A stretch of 35,848 bases of DNA. Origin: a virus (Duplodnaviria; Caudoviricetes). Below are positions 5,514-35,848 of the stretch, piece after piece (position 1 is the first letter of the stretch; the number at the start of each line of letters is the position of its first letter). Below the pieces are notes generated by a model. That model did no database searches. It was given only the letters and a program-made list of their open reading frames with translations, and was not told the origin of the DNA. The stretch is from the IMG/VR virus record IMGVR_UViG_3300046832_000060, positions 1-35,848 of that record. The stretch is one strand, 5' to 3'. The position numbers and the translations under genes were made by a program.

Positions 5514-5664
5514 TTTAGAAGATCGTATACAAAAGTTACGAGATGCTTATGCATTGAATAACATTTACCAAACGGAGTCATTGCAGATTATTGATGCATT
5601 ACAAGCACAGATCAATGTGCTTAATCAATTGCTAGCTTTAGAAATTAAAGATATAGATGGCTAA
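5497..5664 (+). CDS. Small coiled-coil hypothetical protein
   Basis: ATG at 5497 follows a GAGGAGG RBS. Confidence 0.7.
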   Translation: MSAPNNLEDRIQKLRDAYALNNIYQTESLQIIDALQAQINVLNQLLALEIKDIDG

Positions 5665-7210
5665 CAAAAAGGAAGTATCTCAGAAGTCCCTTCATGGACC
5701 TGGGATTGACTTAGACTTTTCTACAGCACCAACTACATGGAGCTTCTTACAGTCAGATGCATTCGTGCGTGGACTGATGGGACCTGTAGGTTCTGGTAAA
5801 TCCTATGCATGTGCCGCAGAGATTATGATGCGAGCAGTTAGACAAAAGCCATCACCTATTGATGGTATTCGTTATACACGATTTGTCATTGTACGTAACT
5901 CATATCCTGAATTAAAAACCACAACAATTAAAACATGGCAAGATTTATTCCCAGAAAACACTTTTGGTCCGATGCTATATACTCCTCCTATTACTCATCA
6001 CATCAGACTCCCATCAAGGGGTGATGCTGCGGGGATTGATTGTGAAGTAATTTTTTTAGCATTGGATCAACCTAAAGACGTACGTAAACTACTATCACTT
6101 GAACTAACAGGAGCGTGGGTAAATGAAGCTCGTGAACTTCCTAAAGCAGTTATTGACGGACTTACTCATCGTGTGGGTCGATATCCGACACAACGTGATG
6201 GTGGACCTACCTGGCATGGTGTGTGGATGGATACTAATCCAATGGATGATGACCACTGGTGGTTTAAACTAGCAGAGAAAACAAAACTCACTGGCAAGTA
6301 TGCTTGGGATTTCTTTAAACAACCTGGTGGTGTCACAGAAGTAGATCCAGGAAACTTACCAGAGAATCCAGAAGCTAACGATCATATATTTTCTGGTGGT
6401 CGTTGGTGGAAGATTAATCCTAAAGCTGAAAACGTAAGTAACTTACCAGCGGGTTATTACATGCAGATGTTAGGTGGTAAGAACTTAGACTGGATTAAGT
6501 GTTATGCCGAAGGTAAATATACCTATGTTCAAGAAGGTAGACCCGTATGGCCAGAGTATGACGATAGTTCTATGAGTGGTGAAGTCGATTATGATCCTGA
6601 GCATGCATTGCAAGTGGGTCTTGACTTTGGTTTGACACCAGCCGCAGTGGTAGGACAACGATTACCTAATGGCAGATGGATTATTTTAGATGAGATCGTA
6701 ACATTTGACATGGGGCTAGAAAGATTTGGTCAGCAGTTATTGGCAGAACTCAATGCTCGCTACCCTAAAGCACAGATTATGATGTGGGGTGATCCAGCGG
6801 GTATGCAACGAGATGCGATTTATGAGGTTACTGCATTTGATTATCTTAGAACATTAGGTTTACGCGCACAACCTACACCATCGAATGACTTTAAAGTAAG
6901 ACGAGAAGCAGCAGCCGCACCTATGCAAAGACTTATTGCTGGTAAACCTGGTCTTATGATTGCAACTAAATGCAAAATGATACGCAAATCATTAGCGGGC
7001 GGTTACCATTTCAAGCGTGTAGCTGTCGGCGCTGGTCAAGAACGATTTAAAGATGCACCTAACAAGAACGAACACTCTCACGTAGGCGATGCTTTTGGAT
7101 ACTTACTTCTTGGTGGTGGCGAACATAAACGATTAACCAAGAGTCCATTATCTGCATCAACCATTATTGCTCAAACGATAGCTAAGTCTGACTTTAATGT
7201 TTTCGACTGA
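5657..7210 (+). CDS. terL: Terminase large subunit
   Basis: Walker A GPVGSGKS, Walker B-like AWVNEARE, nuclease motif GLDFG, C-terminal HVGDAFGY. Confidence 0.93.
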   Translation: MANKKEVSQKSLHGPGIDLDFSTAPTTWSFLQSDAFVRGLMGPVGSGKSYACAAEIMMRAVRQKPSPIDGIRYTRFVIVRNSYPELKTTTIKTWQDLFPENTFGPMLYTPPITHHIRLPSRGDAAGIDCEVIFLALDQPKDVRKLLSLELTGAWVNEARELPKAVIDGLTHRVGRYPTQRDGGPTWHGVWMDTNPMDDDHWWFKLAEKTKLTGKYAWDFFKQPGGVTEVDPGNLPENPEANDHIFSGGRWWKINPKAENVSNLPAGYYMQMLGGKNLDWIKCYAEGKYTYVQEGRPVWPEYDDSSMSGEVDYDPEHALQVGLDFGLTPAAVVGQRLPNGRWIILDEIVTFDMGLERFGQQLLAELNARYPKAQIMMWGDPAGMQRDAIYEVTAFDYLRTLGLRAQPTPSNDFKVRREAAAAPMQRLIAGKPGLMIATKCKMIRKSLAGGYHFKRVAVGAGQERFKDAPNKNEHSHVGDAFGYLLLGGGEHKRLTKSPLSASTIIAQTIAKSDFNVFD

Positions 7211-21891: not shown

Positions 21892-23703
21892 ATGGCTGAC
21901 TATCCAATAACAAGCGTAGCAAGACGAATCGTATACACAGGATCTGCGGGTGTAGGCCCTTATGCCTTTTCGTTTCCTGTCATTGTAAATACAGATATCG
22001 CAGTATACAAGAATAGCACACTTCTTACATTAACAACAGATTACACTGTAACCATTAGCGGAACTACTGGTCAAGGATCAGTTACATTAGTAGTAGCTGC
22101 TACTGGTGCTGATCGTATCACTATTGTAGGTGCAAGAGCTATTGAGCGTTCAACAGACTTCGTAACGGGTGGTGACTTCTTTGCCAATACACTTAATACA
22201 GAATTAGACTCAGAAGTAATCTTTGTTCAACAAGTAGCTGAAACAGCAGAGCGTTCATTAAAAGCTCCTGTAACAGATCCTACGACTATTAACATGACAT
22301 TGCCATTGAATACTGTGCGTGCTAATAAGACGCTTGCATTCGATGCTGATGGTAATCCTGTTGTGGGTGAGCAAATTGGTGACTATCGTGGTAACTGGGC
22401 AGCTGCTACATCTTATAACAAACGAGATCTCGTTAAAGATACAACTACCAATAATATCTATATTTGCTTAACAGCACATACATCAAGTGGTAGCCAACCA
22501 ATAACAACAAATACAGACTCAGCTAAATGGGGACTTATTGTAGACGCATCAGCTTCTACTAATGCTGCATCTAACTCATCTAATTCAGCAAACAACTCTA
22601 GCAACTTTGCTAATAACGCAAGCAACTCAGCCAATGCTGCAAGTAATAGCTCTAACAATGCATCTAACTTTGCTAACAACGCATCTAACTCAGCTAACAC
22701 AGCTTCCAATGCTCAAGCTAACGTAGCAGCTAATGCAAGTGCAGCATCTAATAGCGCTAATAACTCATCTAACTTTGCAAATAATGCGTCTAATAGTGCT
22801 AATGCTTCTAGCAATCATGCAAATAATGCATCTAATTTTGCGAATAACGCAAGTAATAGTGCAACTAGTTCTAGTGGATTTGCAAGTAACGCAAGTAATC
22901 ATGCTAATAATGCATCCAATAGTGCTAATGCTGCGGCAGCTTCATCAACAACTGCAAACACAGCAGCTAATAATTCAAGCAATGCGTCAAGCAATTCAAG
23001 TAACTTTGCAAACAATTCAAGCAATTCAGCCAATGCAGCTGCATTATCTGCAAGTGGTGCATCCAATTCAGCTAACAATGCTTCTAATAGTGCCAACGCT
23101 GCATCATCAGCACAGACAGCAGCAGAGTCAGCACGTGATGCAACACTAGCTGCATATGATTCATTTGATGATAGATATCTAGGTGCTAAATCATCTAATC
23201 CAACAGTAGACAATGATGGCAATGCGCTACTTGCTGGATCTTTATACTACAATACAGTTGTTCCAGAAATGCGTTTATACACTGGATCAGCATGGGTAGC
23301 TGCTTATGTATCTGGTGCATCATACTTAGCTGTCGCTAATAATTTATCTGACGTAGCTAACGTAGCTACATCAAGATCTAACTTACTAGCTGTTGGATAC
23401 ACAACAACTACAGGATCTGCTCAGTTACCAGCTGGCACAACAGGACAACGAGATGCATCTCCTCAAGCTGGATACATTCGATACAATAGTTCTACGCCAG
23501 GCTTTGAAGGATACAATGGCACAGCATGGGGATCTATCGGTGGAGGCGCATCTGCTGGTGGTGCGATCTATGAGAACACATTAACAATTAGCGCTAACTA
23601 CACATTAACAACAAGCACCAATGGATTATCAGTTGGCCCAATCACAGTCGCTTCTGGCGCAACAGTTACTGTAGGATCTGGCCAGAGATGGCTTGTACTA
23701 TAA
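21892..23703 (+). CDS. Tail fibre with T7 gp17-type N-terminal anchor and Asn/Ala/Ser heptad stalk
   Basis: YAFSFPV...DYTV...LNTELD N-terminus; FDDRYLGAK; GYIRYN...FEGYNG; C-terminal GPITVASGATVTV. Confidence 0.88.
   Translation: MADYPITSVARRIVYTGSAGVGPYAFSFPVIVNTDIAVYKNSTLLTLTTDYTVTISGTTGQGSVTLVVAATGADRITIVGARAIERSTDFVTGGDFFANTLNTELDSEVIFVQQVAETAERSLKAPVTDPTTINMTLPLNTVRANKTLAFDADGNPVVGEQIGDYRGNWAAATSYNKRDLVKDTTTNNIYICLTAHTSSGSQPITTNTDSAKWGLIVDASASTNAASNSSNSANNSSNFANNASNSANAASNSSNNASNFANNASNSANTASNAQANVAANASAASNSANNSSNFANNASNSANASSNHANNASNFANNASNSATSSSGFASNASNHANNASNSANAAAASSTTANTAANNSSNASSNSSNFANNSSNSANAAALSASGASNSANNASNSANAASSAQTAAESARDATLAAYDSFDDRYLGAKSSNPTVDNDGNALLAGSLYYNTVVPEMRLYTGSAWVAAYVSGASYLAVANNLSDVANVATSRSNLLAVGYTTTTGSAQLPAGTTGQRDASPQAGYIRYNSSTPGFEGYNGTAWGSIGGGASAGGAIYENTLTISANYTLTTSTNGLSVGPITVASGATVTVGSGQRWLVL
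22561..23140 (+). repeat. Degenerate 21-nt (7-aa) coding repeat, consensus ASN(S/F/H)ANN
   Basis: Roughly 27 heptads visible in the translation. Confidence 0.85.
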
Positions 23704-24411: not shown

Positions 24412-24626
24412 TTGTTGATATAAACAAAGCTAAAGATATCACTAAGGATAGATTACGTCAAGAGCGTAAGTCATTATTAGAAGCACAAGATGTAGCATTC
24501 CAACGTGCTTTAGAATCTAATGCAGACACATCTGCTATTGTTGCAGAGAAACAAAGACTTCGTGATATTACTAATCAAGTAGACACAATGACTACTGTAG
24601 AAGAATTAAAAGGAGCATCACTATGA
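24396..24626 (+). CDS. Putative tail-fibre assembly chaperone
   Basis: R..R..LL...D...KQRLRDIT motif; the start may be 24402. Confidence 0.7.
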   Translation: MDMGIIVDINKAKDITKDRLRQERKSLLEAQDVAFQRALESNADTSAIVAEKQRLRDITNQVDTMTTVEELKGASL

Positions 24627-25390
24627 GTTCAGTCTACTGGATACATCATCCAGAACATACTGATATGTTCTCACAAGGATATATAGGTGTGTCAAAAGAC
24701 TTGAAGAAAAGATGGAATGACCATGCTAAGCGCACAAACAATGCTCACTTGTTACATGCTATTAAGAAATATGGATGGGATAGTTTAGTTAAAGAAGTTG
24801 TATTAGTGGCTGAAGAAACATATTGCTTAATGATTGAAGCTAAGTTAAGAGCTGAAAATAAGATAGGCTGGAACATTGTTAAAGGTGGAGGTATGCCACC
24901 AAGTGCTTTAGGCATGAAATTTACTAGGTCAGAAGAATGGAAACAAAAGCAAAGTGTTGCAAGAAAAGGTAAGCCTTCTTGGAATAAAGGTATTAAATAT
25001 ACAGAAGAACAAAAGTCTAATGTATTTAAATTATCTGAATACATGAAAGATAAACCACATGGCATGCTAGGGAAAACACAATCCATAGAGTCTATTGAGT
25101 CTATGAAGCAAAAGAAGATTGGTAAAAAACAAACACTAGAGTCTGTAGAAAAAAGACGTAAAGCTATGATTGGTTATGTATACACAAAAACTACTTGCCC
25201 AAACTGCAATAAGTCTGTTTCTATCAACATGGCAAAAAGGTATCATTTTGATAAATGCAAAGGAACAAGACCATTTATTGCTAGAACAACACTAGATAAT
25301 AAACGTATATTTTTAGGAAGATTTATGACTAAAGAATTAGCAATTCAAGCAGTAGACAATTATAAGAAGGAGCATGTATCATGCCATTAA
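24623..25390 (+). CDS. Freestanding GIY-YIG homing endonuclease with NUMOD3-like repeats
   Basis: VYWI...GYIGVS...R...H; GWNIVKGG; PSWNKG; CPNC; C-terminal FLGRF.T.E.A. Confidence 0.85.
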   Translation: MSSVYWIHHPEHTDMFSQGYIGVSKDLKKRWNDHAKRTNNAHLLHAIKKYGWDSLVKEVVLVAEETYCLMIEAKLRAENKIGWNIVKGGGMPPSALGMKFTRSEEWKQKQSVARKGKPSWNKGIKYTEEQKSNVFKLSEYMKDKPHGMLGKTQSIESIESMKQKKIGKKQTLESVEKRRKAMIGYVYTKTTCPNCNKSVSINMAKRYHFDKCKGTRPFIARTTLDNKRIFLGRFMTKELAIQAVDNYKKEHVSCH

Positions 25391-29616: not shown

Positions 29617-30117
29617 ATGTTTAGCATCATCAGCGGAATTTTAGGGTTTGCCACTAGTGGACTCCCGAGTTTATTAGGATTTTTTCAGCAAAAAGGTGAC
29701 CAAGCACATGAACGTGAGATGGCTAAGTTACAGAACGAACAAGCTATGCGTATGGCAGAGAAAGGTTTTGTATCTCAAGAGAAGATTGCTGCTATTGAAT
29801 TAGAAGGAACGTACGCAGAAACGTACGCTCAAGAACGTGAAGCATTATATGCACATGACACTAAGCTTGTAGAAGGTGCATCACAATGGGTCAAGACTCT
29901 TAATGCTTGTGTCAGACCATTCGTTGCATTTACTTTTGTAGGCTTACTTGTATTCGTTGATGTAGCTGGCTTCATATGGGCAGTTAAATCTACTGGTGGA
30001 TTCACACCAGAATCTATGGATGCTATATTCTCTAGCGATGAGATGAGCATTGTAGCTTCTATCATTGGATTCTACTTTGGCTCTCGCACATGGGAAAAGA
30101 AACGTGAAAGTATCTAA
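29617..30117 (+). CDS. Holin, 3TM-type
   Basis: VRP motif, TM helices, IIGFYFGSR; directly upstream of the lysozyme. Confidence 0.75.
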   Translation: MFSIISGILGFATSGLPSLLGFFQQKGDQAHEREMAKLQNEQAMRMAEKGFVSQEKIAAIELEGTYAETYAQEREALYAHDTKLVEGASQWVKTLNACVRPFVAFTFVGLLVFVDVAGFIWAVKSTGGFTPESMDAIFSSDEMSIVASIIGFYFGSRTWEKKRESI

Positions 30118-30556
30118 GCGTGGTATCGAACTTATTAAACATTTTGAAGGTGTGCGTAGTCGGCCCTATCGTTGTGCTGCAAACCTGTATACTGTGGGTG
30201 TTGGTCACCTTATCGGCGATGGCAAACATTTGCCTGATTCTTGGAACAGAACTTTTACGCAAGAAGAAATAGATGGACTTCTTAAATCAGACCTCAATCG
30301 TTTCGAGTTGGGAGTATCTAAGATGCTACCTAACGTGCGCCTTAGACAATGTGAATTCGATTGCTTGGTTTCTTTTGCCTTCAATCTTGGCTTGGGTACA
30401 TTTCAAAGATCAACACTCCGTCAAGCGTTGCTTCGTGGCGATAAAGAAGCGGCTATTGAATCGCTCCTAAAGTATTGTCGTGCTGGTGGTCGTGTGCTTA
30501 AAGGACTTCAACTAAGACGTGAAGCAGAAGCTAAGATGTTTAAGTCAGGCTATTGA
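30104..30556 (+). CDS. Endolysin, GH24 phage lysozyme
   Basis: IKHFEG...YRC...TVGVGH (E-x8-C-x5-T), FNLG, GL..RR.AE; GTG start at 30104 is likely. Confidence 0.92.
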   Translation: MKVSKRGIELIKHFEGVRSRPYRCAANLYTVGVGHLIGDGKHLPDSWNRTFTQEEIDGLLKSDLNRFELGVSKMLPNVRLRQCEFDCLVSFAFNLGLGTFQRSTLRQALLRGDKEAAIESLLKYCRAGGRVLKGLQLRREAEAKMFKSGY

Positions 30557-32077: not shown

Positions 32078-32292
32078 TAGAATTTCCTTTGCTCAAAGCA
32101 TTCAAGGTGACTAGACACAAACATATTCTTCTTTACTTCCTCAAATAGTTTGCCATCAATACACTTTAGATCCTTGTCTGCAAAACTTCTTGGCTTAATC
32201 TGATTAATGTTTACCTCAACACTAACAAATAGCATCATAAAGATACACACCATACACAATAAAGTTAATAACTTTTCTTTGCCTGTCATCAT
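32077..32292 (-). CDS. Small membrane-anchored hypothetical protein
   Basis: N-terminal hydrophobic helix; coupled ORF. Confidence 0.65.
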   Translation of the reverse strand: MMTGKEKLLTLLCMVCIFMMLFVSVEVNINQIKPRSFADKDLKCIDGKLFEEVKKNMFVSSHLECFEQRKF

Positions 32293-33002
32293 AATGTCCC
32301 TTCAAACTTATAACTACCTATATGACCTAACTTTGCCCATGGTGCAGCCCATACTTTAATCCCATTCAGTCTTGCTAATCTACAGAAGTGATAGTCCTCT
32401 GATAATAATCTATTTGAGTCTGGCTCAATCGATGTAGCAAAGTATTCTGTAACAATTTCTTGCTGGCCTGGCAGCATGTCATTGGTATAGGTAGGGCAAT
32501 GTGGTTTAAGTAAATCAAATACACTACGCTTGATAAGCATAAAGCCTGTGCCACCATTAAATATTTCTATAGGTTCTGTCATTGAATGCAATGGCGTATC
32601 AATATAGTTAAGCTTATTAATAACAAGATCACCCGTAGCATACTTTAGATCTTCCCCTTGAATACCACGCGCTACTGCATCGCCAATCTTTTCCCATGCA
32701 ATACGTTTCTTAGGATACACACCACAGATAATATCTTTATCTGCATCAATCATAGATACAATATCTTCTGCATGATAACTAATGTCAGCATCAATGAATA
32801 GTAAGTGAGTGCAATCTGTTTGATAGAACATCTTAACCAATCCATTCCTAGCTCTTGTAATTAAGGATTCGTTATAAAGAAATTGCCAGTTATAACCTAT
32901 CCCTCTATCTAAGAATAGCTTTGTTGCATTGATGTGGCCAATCGCATTCTCTCCTGTACATACACCACCATACATTGGAATGCCTATAAATATATTACTC
33001 AT
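32289..33002 (-). CDS. GT-A fold glycosyltransferase-like protein
   Basis: IGIPMYGG, ESLITRARN, LLFIDADI (DxD), GTGFMLIKR and SEDYHFC motifs. Confidence 0.85.
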   Translation of the reverse strand: MSNIFIGIPMYGGVCTGENAIGHINATKLFLDRGIGYNWQFLYNESLITRARNGLVKMFYQTDCTHLLFIDADISYHAEDIVSMIDADKDIICGVYPKKRIAWEKIGDAVARGIQGEDLKYATGDLVINKLNYIDTPLHSMTEPIEIFNGGTGFMLIKRSVFDLLKPHCPTYTNDMLPGQQEIVTEYFATSIEPDSNRLLSEDYHFCRLARLNGIKVWAAPWAKLGHIGSYKFEGTL

Positions 33003-33144: not shown

Positions 33145-33498
33145 CTAATAAAATATATGATTGTTAATAATGGTTCTTGGCTTCATACCCCATTGATTAT
33201 CCATCTTAACATTATGAAAGTAACTAGCTCCCTTGCTACTGTCTTTGATTTTTTGTTGGATAATTTTTTGGGATAATTCTATAAATGGTTTGAGTGTTTC
33301 ATAAGGCGGGACATGCTTTGTCTTTTTAGTCCATTCAAACTGGTGTGGCTTGAAAGTCTCCGAACATATATTCTTTTGGTCAAAGTCAGCTCTCCGATAA
33401 AGCACATACCCCACTGCCACTTGGCCAGAGATAGGTTCACCTCTGGCTTCATGGAACATGGTCAAACTCATACACATGACTGCTGCAATATCTAACAT
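33145..33498 (-). CDS. Cell wall hydrolase, SleB/Hydrolase_2 family
   Basis: FHEARGEP..GQVAV, QFEW, GASYFH and HIFY motifs. Confidence 0.88.
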   Translation of the reverse strand: MLDIAAVMCMSLTMFHEARGEPISGQVAVGYVLYRRADFDQKNICSETFKPHQFEWTKKTKHVPPYETLKPFIELSQKIIQQKIKDSSKGASYFHNVKMDNQWGMKPRTIINNHIFY

Positions 33499-33610
33499 AA
33501 AGTCTCCTTCATTAGGTAGCTTTCATGGTTTTACTGATTAGTTTGTCTTGCAAAAAGTGCATAATTTGCGTAACAAGTAATCTTGCTTGTCATAGATAAG
33601 GACTAACACC

Positions 33611-33682
33611 ATGTGGACAACTCCAGCAGCTACTGAAATGCGCTTTGGCTTCGAAGTTACAATGTACGTAATGAATAAATAA
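33611..33682 (+). CDS. pqqA: Pyrroloquinoline quinone precursor peptide PqqA, 23 aa
   Basis: Translated by hand: MWTTPAATEMRFGFEVTMYVMNK. W-x-x-P leader and R-x-G-x-E-V-T-x-Y core with E15-x3-Y19; AAGGA RBS 8 nt upstream. Not in the track. Confidence 0.96.
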   Translation: MWTTPAATEMRFGFEVTMYVMNK

Positions 33683-33857
33683 GCCAAGCATACAATGATA
33701 AGGCAATGCCTACGGAGATCTTTGTTGCTCTCCATATGCGTTGCCTTTTCTCTTTGGGTGACTCCATTGTCACCTCGTATTCATAGCCATTAAGCTCTTT
33801 AAATGATCGTGGATAACGCCATTCAAAAGCATTGAAGTCTGTCTTAATTGGTTTCAT
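33657..33857 (-). CDS. Small protein with C-terminal TM helix
   Basis: AAGGA RBS; WRYPRSFKE; hydrophobic tail overlapping pqqA antisense. Confidence 0.7.
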   Translation of the reverse strand: MKPIKTDFNAFEWRYPRSFKELNGYEYEVTMESPKEKRQRIWRATKISVGIALSLYAWLIYSLRTL

Positions 33858-34581
33858 TTGATTGTCCTTTCACTGTGTTGATGCGTGTGGCTTGTTTGCC
33901 TATGTATTGCATCTTAACTGTTATGGGTAAGCGATTTAGTGTTGGCTGATTAGCGTCTACTAATGCTTTAAGTTTCGATATCTTATCCTCTGGGTTTAAG
34001 CTAGAATTAACTAGCTGTTCAGACATTTGATCGAATTTTGCTTGCCATGTCAATACATCCGATACCTCTATTGGGTCTTTATTAGGAATATAGAAGGTAT
34101 ATTCCTTAGTTTGTGGCTTTTTTACAACACTGCCAGCTCTTTCTGTAGCTAGATTACCATCATCATCCTCTGGCGCAATACCACAGGCCGCCATTAAACT
34201 ACCTCTACGACAGTAAGTAAGCGATGCCATAACGCCATGCGGATCTATCTTAGATGCTGGTATGTGTAAGATGCCACCACTTAAAGTCTCACCTGACTCA
34301 TGGATAAATACAGTTTCTACCTTGACACCATCATCACAATCATGTGTCTTTTGTATAAGACCAATGCCATTGTTATGTAATGCATCAATCACAGCCTCAA
34401 TACAGCCTTCTAAGTTTACATACTTACTTCTAAAGTGTGGATTGGTAGCTGTCTTAATTGCTGGAGCGAACTCCTTTTGTGCTTTAATAAATGCTGCTGA
34501 TATAGTTTTCATACTTTTCTCCTGTTGTTGTAATTCATTCATAACTTCTGTTTCAAAACGATCTTGGTCATTATCTACCAT
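33844..34581 (-). CDS. erf: ERF-family single-strand annealing protein
   Basis: NPHFRSKY, IHESGE and SLTYCRR...GIAPEDDDGN motifs. Confidence 0.9.
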   Translation of the reverse strand: MVDNDQDRFETEVMNELQQQEKSMKTISAAFIKAQKEFAPAIKTATNPHFRSKYVNLEGCIEAVIDALHNNGIGLIQKTHDCDDGVKVETVFIHESGETLSGGILHIPASKIDPHGVMASLTYCRRGSLMAACGIAPEDDDGNLATERAGSVVKKPQTKEYTFYIPNKDPIEVSDVLTWQAKFDQMSEQLVNSSLNPEDKISKLKALVDANQPTLNRLPITVKMQYIGKQATRINTVKGQSNETN

Positions 34582-34745
34582 GCTGCTCTCCTACCATCAA
34601 TCTTGTACATGTCCATGGCTCGGTTAAGTACCATAGCATCTCTGCTATACCTAGCACCTGACTGATCGTGATCGTGGCATCTTTTAGCGTGTAACTTAAT
34701 ACGCCATTTCTTACGGATCTGAAAATGAGTTAATCTTTTAATCAT
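34575..34745 (-). CDS. Small basic hypothetical protein, 56 aa
   Basis: Translated by hand: MIKRLTHFQIRKKWRIK...; overlaps both neighbours; AAGGA RBS. Not in the track. Confidence 0.65.
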   Translation of the reverse strand: MIKRLTHFQIRKKWRIKLHAKRCHDHDQSGARYSRDAMVLNRAMDMYKIDGRRAAW

Positions 34746-35692
34746 ATACGATCCTTGATTGAAAGTTTAGACTGACGAATGACGTACGCTTCTTTAGCTG
34801 GCACAGTTTTTGCTGGCTGTGCTTTGTAAGAACGCATAGGCCATGAGATTTTGTAACGACCCGCATTACATACTTCGTGATCCCTCATATGCTCCATGAT
34901 GTTGATTTGCAAGCGATCAATCTGTGCTTCTAACTCCGCGATTTGCTCACGAATTGTGATGATCTTCTCAGCTTGGATCTCAACTTCTGGTAACTCAATC
35001 GTACTCTTTTCAGCACGATCAAACACACGACTGGCTTCAAAAGAGTTTTGTAAGTCATACCATTCAATCTCTTGATTAGTTTTATACTTATTCAAACGCT
35101 CTTGAAAGTCCTCGACAGCATTGTGAATCATGTTGATGTGATCTTCATTAATGGGATATAAAAAGATGCGTAATGTTGTACCCTTGTATAACACACAAAG
35201 AGCGCCCCATGATGCTTTCATAATATCCATTTGACCTTGAAGCTGGATCACACCACGATATGGCGCTGGCTCATTCTCGACTTCTTGAGCAGTAAGCTTG
35301 GCTTCTAAAATACCATAACCATCAAGCTTAATTGAATCATGCCCCATGACATAAATACCTTTGTCAATGTCAGTGTAGATTGTTGTGCCATTGCCAGACG
35401 CTGTGCCATCAAGGCTTGTAGCCAATGGTATGTCAGGATGAAAGTATGGTTTATCATGGGCTAGATCATCAATATCAACGCCAAGCCTTTTACAGCTTTC
35501 GGATAATATTAACTTCTCTGTAAGGTTTCCCCATAACATAGGCTCTTGCTCTGTAAACTCATTAGCCTCTCCGTTAAGTGCATTAATTGAATACTTCAAT
35601 TCATCATTAGGCGTTCGAAACTTACTGAAACCTAATAATGCTGGAAGCCTTGAGCATGACATCATGTCATCGGGCGTGACTTTTCCTACCAT
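34742..35692 (-). CDS. YqaJ-like viral recombination exonuclease
   Basis: LLGFSKFRTP, MLWGNLTE, ATSLDG, ILEAK and QLQGQM motifs; adjacent to ERF. Confidence 0.88.
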   Translation of the reverse strand: MVGKVTPDDMMSCSRLPALLGFSKFRTPNDELKYSINALNGEANEFTEQEPMLWGNLTEKLILSESCKRLGVDIDDLAHDKPYFHPDIPLATSLDGTASGNGTTIYTDIDKGIYVMGHDSIKLDGYGILEAKLTAQEVENEPAPYRGVIQLQGQMDIMKASWGALCVLYKGTTLRIFLYPINEDHINMIHNAVEDFQERLNKYKTNQEIEWYDLQNSFEASRVFDRAEKSTIELPEVEIQAEKIITIREQIAELEAQIDRLQINIMEHMRDHEVCNAGRYKISWPMRSYKAQPAKTVPAKEAYVIRQSKLSIKDRI

Positions 35693-35848
35693 TTTATGTT
35701 TTCCTTGTCTTTGATATTGTTGAGATAATAAGATACGTTAGGCGCTGTCCACGTGCTTCCTGAGTACGTTTTAACGCCTAGTTCATTGAGCTTCTTTGCG
35801 ATGTTGCGACATGATGCTCGGCCACAATTTTCCATGGCCAAGTCAAAC
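35686..35848 (-). CDS. C-terminal end of the serine recombinase, duplicated by the terminal overlap
   Basis: ...VSYYLNNIKDKENIKW-TAG; the stop overlaps the YqaJ start region. Confidence 0.85.
   Translation of the reverse strand, partial: FDLAMENCGRASCRNIAKKLNELGVKTYSGSTWTAPNVSYYLNNIKDKENIKW
35694..35848. repeat. Terminal direct repeat, right copy
   Basis: Matches 1-155 with one mismatch. Confidence 0.95.

Follow-up and report, generated by a model that had tools for sequence, protein, structure and literature searches.

The genome described here raises a simple question: why should a phage carry the gene for PqqA, the peptide precursor of the redox cofactor PQQ, and none of the genes that process it? 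The window, by which is meant the whole stretch of DNA that was analysed, is 35,848 nucleotides long (IMG/VR record IMGVR_UViG_3300046832_000060), and the gene takes up 72 of them. One PqqA peptide is spent for every PQQ that is made. A preliminary description of this DNA proposed on that ground that the phage supplies a stoichiometric substrate to the pathway of a methylotrophic host. The gene, its relatives and its upstream control region are examined below, and the possible uses of the peptide are then weighed against each other.

The pqqA gene and its surroundings

The coding sequence lies at 33611..33682 on the plus strand and consists of 23 codons and a stop. Its product scores 40.3 bits against Pfam PF08042 (cut-off 21.1, E 3e-10) and 38.8 bits against TIGR02107 (cut-off 20). 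Because both scores exceed the family cut-offs, the match is not due to chance, and the identity given in the preliminary description is confirmed. The reading of the gene itself was also correct: the ATG is at 33611, the TAA ends at 33682, the 23-residue translation is as given, and the AAGGA Shine-Dalgarno sequence (33598..33602, plus strand) is found 8 nt before the ATG. Similar purine-rich sites precede the viral and host copies. Glu15 (33653) and Tyr19 (33665), the PQQ-forming residues of the Glu-x3-Tyr core that had been pointed out earlier, are both in place.

Over its full length, leader included, the peptide is the same as that encoded by 76 of 135 distinct host copies, which bears out the Methylophilaceae character ascribed to it in the preliminary description. 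The nearest host copies differ from the window gene by 4 of 72 nt. PqqD binds the leader of PqqA and delivers the C-terminal Glu/Tyr region to PqqE, according to the available part of one account (PMC10906245); the leader encoded here is of the host type and is predicted to be suited to such binding.

The gene is antisense within the minus-strand early arm. On one side of it is a cell-wall hydrolase gene (33145..33498, minus strand; PF07486, 53.5 bits), from which it diverges, and on the other a 66-aa open reading frame (33657..33857, minus strand) that has no Pfam, PHROG or NCBIfam match and was recovered in 15 of 16 distinct relatives. The last 26 nt of this frame overlap the 3' end of pqqA tail-to-tail, and the overlap with a phage gene reported earlier is thus real. 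The frame has a Glu-Val-Thr-Met run resembling the PqqA core, probably by chance. Another antisense frame of 65 aa (33538-33735, minus strand) spans pqqA and has no family match; GenBank annotates similar opposite-strand frames over pqqA in Melnitz and MW202481. Among the 54 open reading frames of the window scanned with Pfam and PHROGs none matches the pqqB-E families, as had been stated. The accompanying statement that pqqA is the only credible plus-strand gene in the arm holds to the extent that the other plus-strand frames of 31.6-35.8 kb overlap minus-strand genes, as seen from the listing of open reading frames alone.

Downstream of the stop codon, the segment 33683-33765 has a computed folding energy of -28.6 kcal/mol (z -3.83, matched by 0 of 200 shuffles). 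It contains a long hairpin with a T-rich tail (33700..33755, plus strand) inside the antisense frame, and this candidate terminator may end the pqqA transcript. The fold is the same in 16 of 16 distinct relatives, a conservation for which coding constraint could account.

The phage and its likely host

The window is a complete podophage genome (CheckV completeness 100%). A 155-nt direct repeat at 1-155 and 35694-35848 marks it as a circular assembly. T7-like capsid, portal and tail genes are combined with recombination genes (Pfam, PHROGs), namely an Erf annealing protein and a YqaJ/RecE exonuclease in the early arm (33844..35692, minus strand), which served as anchors in the searches for relatives. 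The terminase large subunit (5657..7210, plus strand) has 85.5% identity over 516 aa to that of MEP301 (MW452941), the next best match having 43.9%. By sequence comparison, terminase and gene order place the window phage in the MEP301 type, that of an OM43 phage.

Several other features of the genome were observed. A GIY-YIG homing endonuclease is found within the tail fibre genes (24623-25390), and a 603-aa tail fibre gene has Asn/Ser/Ala-rich repeats with a 21-nt period (22567-23100). The early arm holds a glycosyltransferase-like gene (32289-33002, minus strand) as well as the cell-wall hydrolase, and the lysis cassette at 29617-30556 is separate from both.

The pattern of the first 15 codons of pqqA matched about 1,100 stretches of prokaryotic genomes, and the 80 titles listed are nearly all of Methylophilaceae or unclassified bins. 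The RNA runs that contain the window region are freshwater for the most part. A freshwater Methylophilaceae host is likely because of the MEP301-like terminase and gene order, the host pqqA matches and the freshwater RNA runs, the assignment being made at family level and by similarity alone. The methylotroph host suggested in the preliminary description is supported to that extent.

Conservation and spread of phage pqqA

Searches with the exonuclease gave 52 viral loci (67-100% identity), 35 of which have a full pqqA, antisense in every case, while 2 end inside the gene and 15 before it. The gene is kept in all 35 of these relatives that span the site. A second set was anchored on the terminase and comprised 24 records chosen for length among the 80 matches listed; pqqA is present in 12, including 6 of 6 with at least 90% completeness, and the 12 misses are 11 records without the neighbouring gene erf and one cut within erf. 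No relative that spans the site and is without pqqA was found in either set. A chimera or host insert, already thought unlikely in the preliminary description, is rejected, as all 35 spanning relatives and all 6 near-complete terminase relatives carry the gene. Contamination of the viral set by host DNA is rejected as well: in 80 viral loci only three open reading frames match those of host loci, all of them frames that overlap pqqA. The gene is metabolic and of host origin, and it lies in a genuine phage genome with phage genes on both sides.

The 120 loci compared (119 viral and the window's own) encode only 9 peptides with 102 different coding sequences. Codons 16-23 were left free by the search pattern, the peptide pattern still having selected the genes and the pairs not being independent; over the 102 distinct viral genes they give a pS of 0.657, a pN of 0.049 and a ratio of 0.074, against 0.134 in hosts. 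For 15 viral genes found without the first-15-codon pattern the ratio is 0.15. Taken over all comparisons, pN/pS ranges from 0.07 to 0.17 and pS from 0.45 to 0.66, so that synonymous change is far above amino-acid change. The coding sequences thus indicate that pqqA is under purifying selection at the protein level in the phage lineage. Part of the low pN/pS could result from repeated recapture from hosts.

From 9 of 64 parts of IMG/VR, about 900 stretches are estimated to match the pattern. The 80 viral loci that have flanks sort into 8 neighbourhood groups, not proven to be separate lineages, and 8 singletons; portal, terminase, polymerase or tail genes are near pqqA in many of the 38 typed loci. 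With a second pattern, 119 of a further 120 viral loci proved to have PqqA-like genes that belong to other sequence types (about 150 stretches estimated). Phage pqqA is therefore not limited to the Methylophilaceae type.

The suggested survey of phage genomes yielded 12 matches among 50,697 GenBank phage records: nine records of cultured Methylophilaceae phages, one phage from a spring metagenome and two Acinetobacter contigs. The last two were excluded from the count, the one examined being a bacterial pqqABCDE contig. This record, CAKLQF020000010.1, is filed as Acinetobacter phage MD-2021a and also has ppk. The cultured carriers are P19250A, Venkman, MEP301, MEP401, MEP402 and four Melnitz records, and their architectures differ. 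At the sensitivity used, no other cultured phage with the gene was found among these 50,697 records. NCBI lists 18 taxa under Methylophilales or Methylophilaceae phage names; 9 records carry pqqA, and the other 9 (MEP431-434, Venkman EXVC038S, two HIM624-A entries, MG-MTP1 and RSA-MFP1) are perhaps outside the searched collection. The pqqA strand bears no annotated coding sequence in 5 of 5 isolate records examined; the gene has been overlooked in cultured phages because 72 nt falls below gene-calling limits.

The upstream box and promoter

Upstream of pqqA and directly beside the ribosome binding site of the hydrolase gene there is a 15-bp imperfect palindrome (33523..33537), which went unmentioned in the preliminary description. 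The motif was first found in viral upstream DNA, in 76 of 87 sequences; its matrix was counted from 93 host sites that had been located with the viral motif, which makes the scores mildly circular. At 12.9 bits the window box is the best site in the entire 35.8-kb genome, the next reaching 8.0. The box exceeds 5 bits in 82 of 93 viral copies as opposed to 4.4% of shuffles. It occurs in 4 of 5 isolates, MEP401 being without it, and 17 of 28 viral PqqA-like genes of one other sequence type also have it. It precedes pqqA or pqqB in 5 of 5 hosts, with a background of 3% of 371 windows. In Ca. Methylopumilus universalis it stands before all three pqqA copies and before a separate pqqB operon; the third pqqA of this organism adjoins an alternative oxidase gene. 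The palindrome is thus termed a PQQ-regulon box and is a candidate site of a host regulator.

The Fur box consensus has a 15-bp core that we take to resemble the pqqA box. Of the eight perfect sites in Ca. Methylopumilus universalis, three precede pqq genes, one each precedes a pair of rhodopsin genes, a cytochrome b561 gene and an M48 peptidase gene, and two lie within genes. None of them precedes iron uptake or storage genes, and a Fur box was rejected.

A predicted extended -10 element (33557..33565, plus strand; hexamer 33560-33565) scores 9.9 bits with a -10 motif derived from hosts and is accompanied by no consensus -35. A generic scan for sigma-70 promoters and terminators returned nothing at pqqA, neither this -10 nor the downstream hairpin. 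The box is 36 nt from the -10 in the window, which is the modal viral spacing, whereas the most frequent host spacing is 59 nt. Hosts also have a weak second site, whose offset matches this difference of 23 nt. Mean site scores are 17.6 bits for the host distal position and -13.2 for the host proximal one, and 11.6 bits for the phage proximal position and -25.3 for the phage distal one, random sequence giving -34.7. In hosts a strong box thus stands 59 nt ahead of the -10 and a weak site at 36 nt, and in phages a single strong box occupies the 36-nt position. The centre of the window box is at about -42 from the predicted transcription start. An activator is suggested because the box is centred near -42 and a -35 is absent. 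We infer that a host regulator binds this putative site and activates the promoter.

The DNA between box and ribosome binding site (33538..33597, plus strand) is an exchangeable promoter and 5' leader module, of which close relatives have other alleles; it is swapped in close relatives and in RNA-library contigs (joint 33534-33611). A weak hairpin at 33573-33590 was considered as a structured leader RNA and rejected, as its z of -0.65 in the window is not significant.

It is possible, with the odds somewhat against it, that the phages have rewired a two-site PQQ switch of the host by dropping the strong distal operator and bringing the weak proximal site near consensus. In this reading pqqA would be a near-core gene of Methylophilaceae phages, the equivalent in methylotrophs of cyanophage psbA, and the host's PQQ regulator would turn the phage copy on at a lower threshold or in the absence of its inducing signal, forcing cofactor synthesis in infected cells.

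Proposed role

Because an intact pqqA sits behind a host PQQ-gene box, extra precursor is likely to be fed to the host PQQ enzymes. The preferred reading, to which a probability of roughly 0.7 is assigned, is that pqqA is a dosage gene: under the host regulator it likely supplies single-use substrate to host PqqD, PqqE, PqqB and PqqC, sustaining the cofactor of methanol dehydrogenase. During infection, the host-type pqqA would be transcribed from the box-linked promoter, the host regulator acting at the box and activating without a -35, and PqqA peptide would be added. The pqqA copy number would rise with replication of the phage genome, adding precursor. The host PqqD, PqqE, PqqB and PqqC would convert the extra PqqA into PQQ, and the extra PQQ would keep the periplasmic methanol dehydrogenase supplied with cofactor. 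PqqA supply would limit PQQ output, and extra cofactor would raise phage yield. As PqqA alone is consumed one-for-one, an amplified gene of 72 nt would be the cheapest lever on the pathway.

The copy numbers of the hosts fit this logic of substrate supply, at least two pqqA matches being found in 59 of 61 host genomes; among the 8 genomes of 1.3 Mb, 7 have three. The second half of the proposal made in the preliminary description, sustained methanol oxidation, stays conditional. Methylophilaceae are reported to have 3-12 copies of pqqA against single copies of pqqB-G (Beck et al. 2014, PMC4109929, as far as the text consulted extends), and in excerpts on a Hyphomicrobium producer the peak of pqqA expression coincides with that of the PQQ synthesis rate (PMC9851590).

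RNA-library contigs were compared for 8 of 24 listed runs. They cover the site on phage-specific flanks at a depth of 2-7, in data that are without strand, level or DNA control, except that one of the eight runs gives no pqqA coverage and another covers the 3' part alone (from 33623). Contigs of two RNA runs extend from pqqA (33597-33682) into flanks that are seen only in Venkman-like viral loci. The pqqA units of other phages are therefore present in lake RNA libraries. In one run of lake RNA, the depth of host-type pqqA contigs reaches the thousands. Since hosts have 2-12 copies and deep pqqA RNA of their own, the gain from a further copy may be small, unless genome amplification or host shut-off plays a part. 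PQQ is recycled as a cofactor, and the demand for it within the latent period is thus uncertain.

The alternative that survives best accepts that the peptide becomes PQQ and places the gain in redox or stress protection, or in other quinoproteins, instead of methanol oxidation. It draws on the association of the box with PQQ synthesis rather than with the genes for dehydrogenases. No box above 10 bits was found within 450 nt of the match start before 12 PQQ alcohol or methanol dehydrogenase genes of five hosts (0 of 12, best 5.9), and a site of a methanol-oxidation regulon was rejected because the box does not reach that score before any of these XoxF/MxaF-type genes. The rhodopsin pair and cytochrome b561 that follow boxes in Ca. 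Methylopumilus universalis point the same way, as do the PqqA-like genes of other sequence types in viral contigs. Nevertheless, PQQ alcohol dehydrogenases score above cut-off in all five hosts, and in Baikal phages pqqA is accompanied by the gene for the dehydrogenase itself, according to the portion of PMC7678222 available, which makes a benefit confined to other uses of PQQ rather improbable.

It is less probable still that the nucleic acid is the active part, either as an early minus-strand transcript antisense to host pqqA or as an amplified box that titrates the regulator, the frame being incidental. Such a role would suit the orientation of pqqA, which is antisense to the early arm at all 35 loci of the window lineage, the match of 68 of 72 nt to a host copy, and the 72 viral loci with both neighbours called, in 30 of which both are opposite to pqqA. 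However, in 17 of the 72 pqqA is co-oriented on both sides; variation is unrestricted at synonymous sites (pS 0.45-0.66), whereas residues, ribosome binding site, start and stop are retained; and box, -10 and ribosome binding site are all oriented to the pqqA strand.

There is very little to recommend pqqA as lysogeny cargo, a prophage gene under host control that helps the lysogen and not lytic growth. The promoter box is of the host type and a resolvase-family gene is found at 2-676 (Pfam, PHROGs), but its product of about 227 aa is too short for a large serine integrase, and the MEP301 homologue was judged unlikely to be a working integrase in the consulted part of its description (PMC8024684). 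An attachment site or prophage was rejected, there being no tRNA and no terminase match at E <= 1e-30 in 301 host-family genomes, a sample searched without a positive control. It is equally hard to credit that pqqA is a nearly neutral passenger, a short host sequence repeatedly captured as a recombination boundary between phage lineages: the promoter module is exchanged exactly between box and ATG and for 30 of 62 viral modules a look-alike exists in a different neighbourhood group, but only 5 of 62 resemble a host module, loss is seen in 0 of 35 spanning relatives, and the spacing is phage-specific (36 versus 59 nt), which suggests adaptation after capture.

Comparison with known systems

Virus-encoded PqqA has a precedent in print, as the preliminary description had suspected. 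A viral PqqA was reported for the T4-like Lake Baikal population VP_266 (Coutinho et al. 2020, PMC7678222), and virus-encoded pqqA is listed for reservoir sediments (2026, PMC13188868), both sources being known in part. The novelty of the gene is reduced by these reports. VP_266 is like the window phage in that it encodes PqqA, is a predicted Methylophilaceae virus and was proposed to boost methanol oxidation. It is T4-like and has a methanol dehydrogenase, whereas the window is a 36-kb podophage of the MEP301 type in which pqqA comes alone and lies antisense within the early arm. The sections consulted of the VP_266 account contain no treatment of pqqA prevalence, selection or promoter. The main texts on MEP301 (Yang et al. 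2021, PMC8024684), Melnitz, MEP401/402, Venkman and MG-MTP1, in the portions available, do not mention pqqA, which their supplements may list. The growth medium described for Melnitz includes PQQ at 1 nM. A literature search from which subscription journals were mostly absent gave no paper on pqqA prevalence in Methylophilaceae phages and none on a Methylophilaceae pqq operator or box. The kind of gene is thus already in print, and what is new here is the prevalence, control logic and testability of phage pqqA.

MEP301 resembles the window in gene order, in its terminase (85.5%) and in the position of pqqA, which is antisense and downstream of erf. It is unlike the window in being marine and in having a peptide that differs at 2 of 23 positions, encoded by an unannotated gene. 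The orphan pqqA of hosts encodes the identical peptide, stands alone with its ribosome binding site, has the same 15-bp box and is not adjacent to pqqB-E. It has a two-site promoter and a short terminator, whereas the window copy has a one-site promoter, an antisense overlap and no terminator of the host type.

Among methanol oxidisers the Methylophilaceae (OM43, Ca. Methylopumilus) are abundant, and the existing cultured phage-host pairs make the role of pqqA directly testable. Together, gene and box offer an inexpensive way of marking the host of uncultured phages, and the box is a pointer to a candidate regulator of PQQ synthesis.

A further parallel is the psbA gene of cyanophages, which is very common in phages and copies a component of the host energy pathway that turns over fast. 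Genes of the psbA type encode an enzyme subunit and their effects have been measured, whereas pqqA encodes a consumed substrate and its role is predicted. To supply a consumed cofactor precursor in place of an enzyme would be an unusual way for a phage to steer host metabolism.
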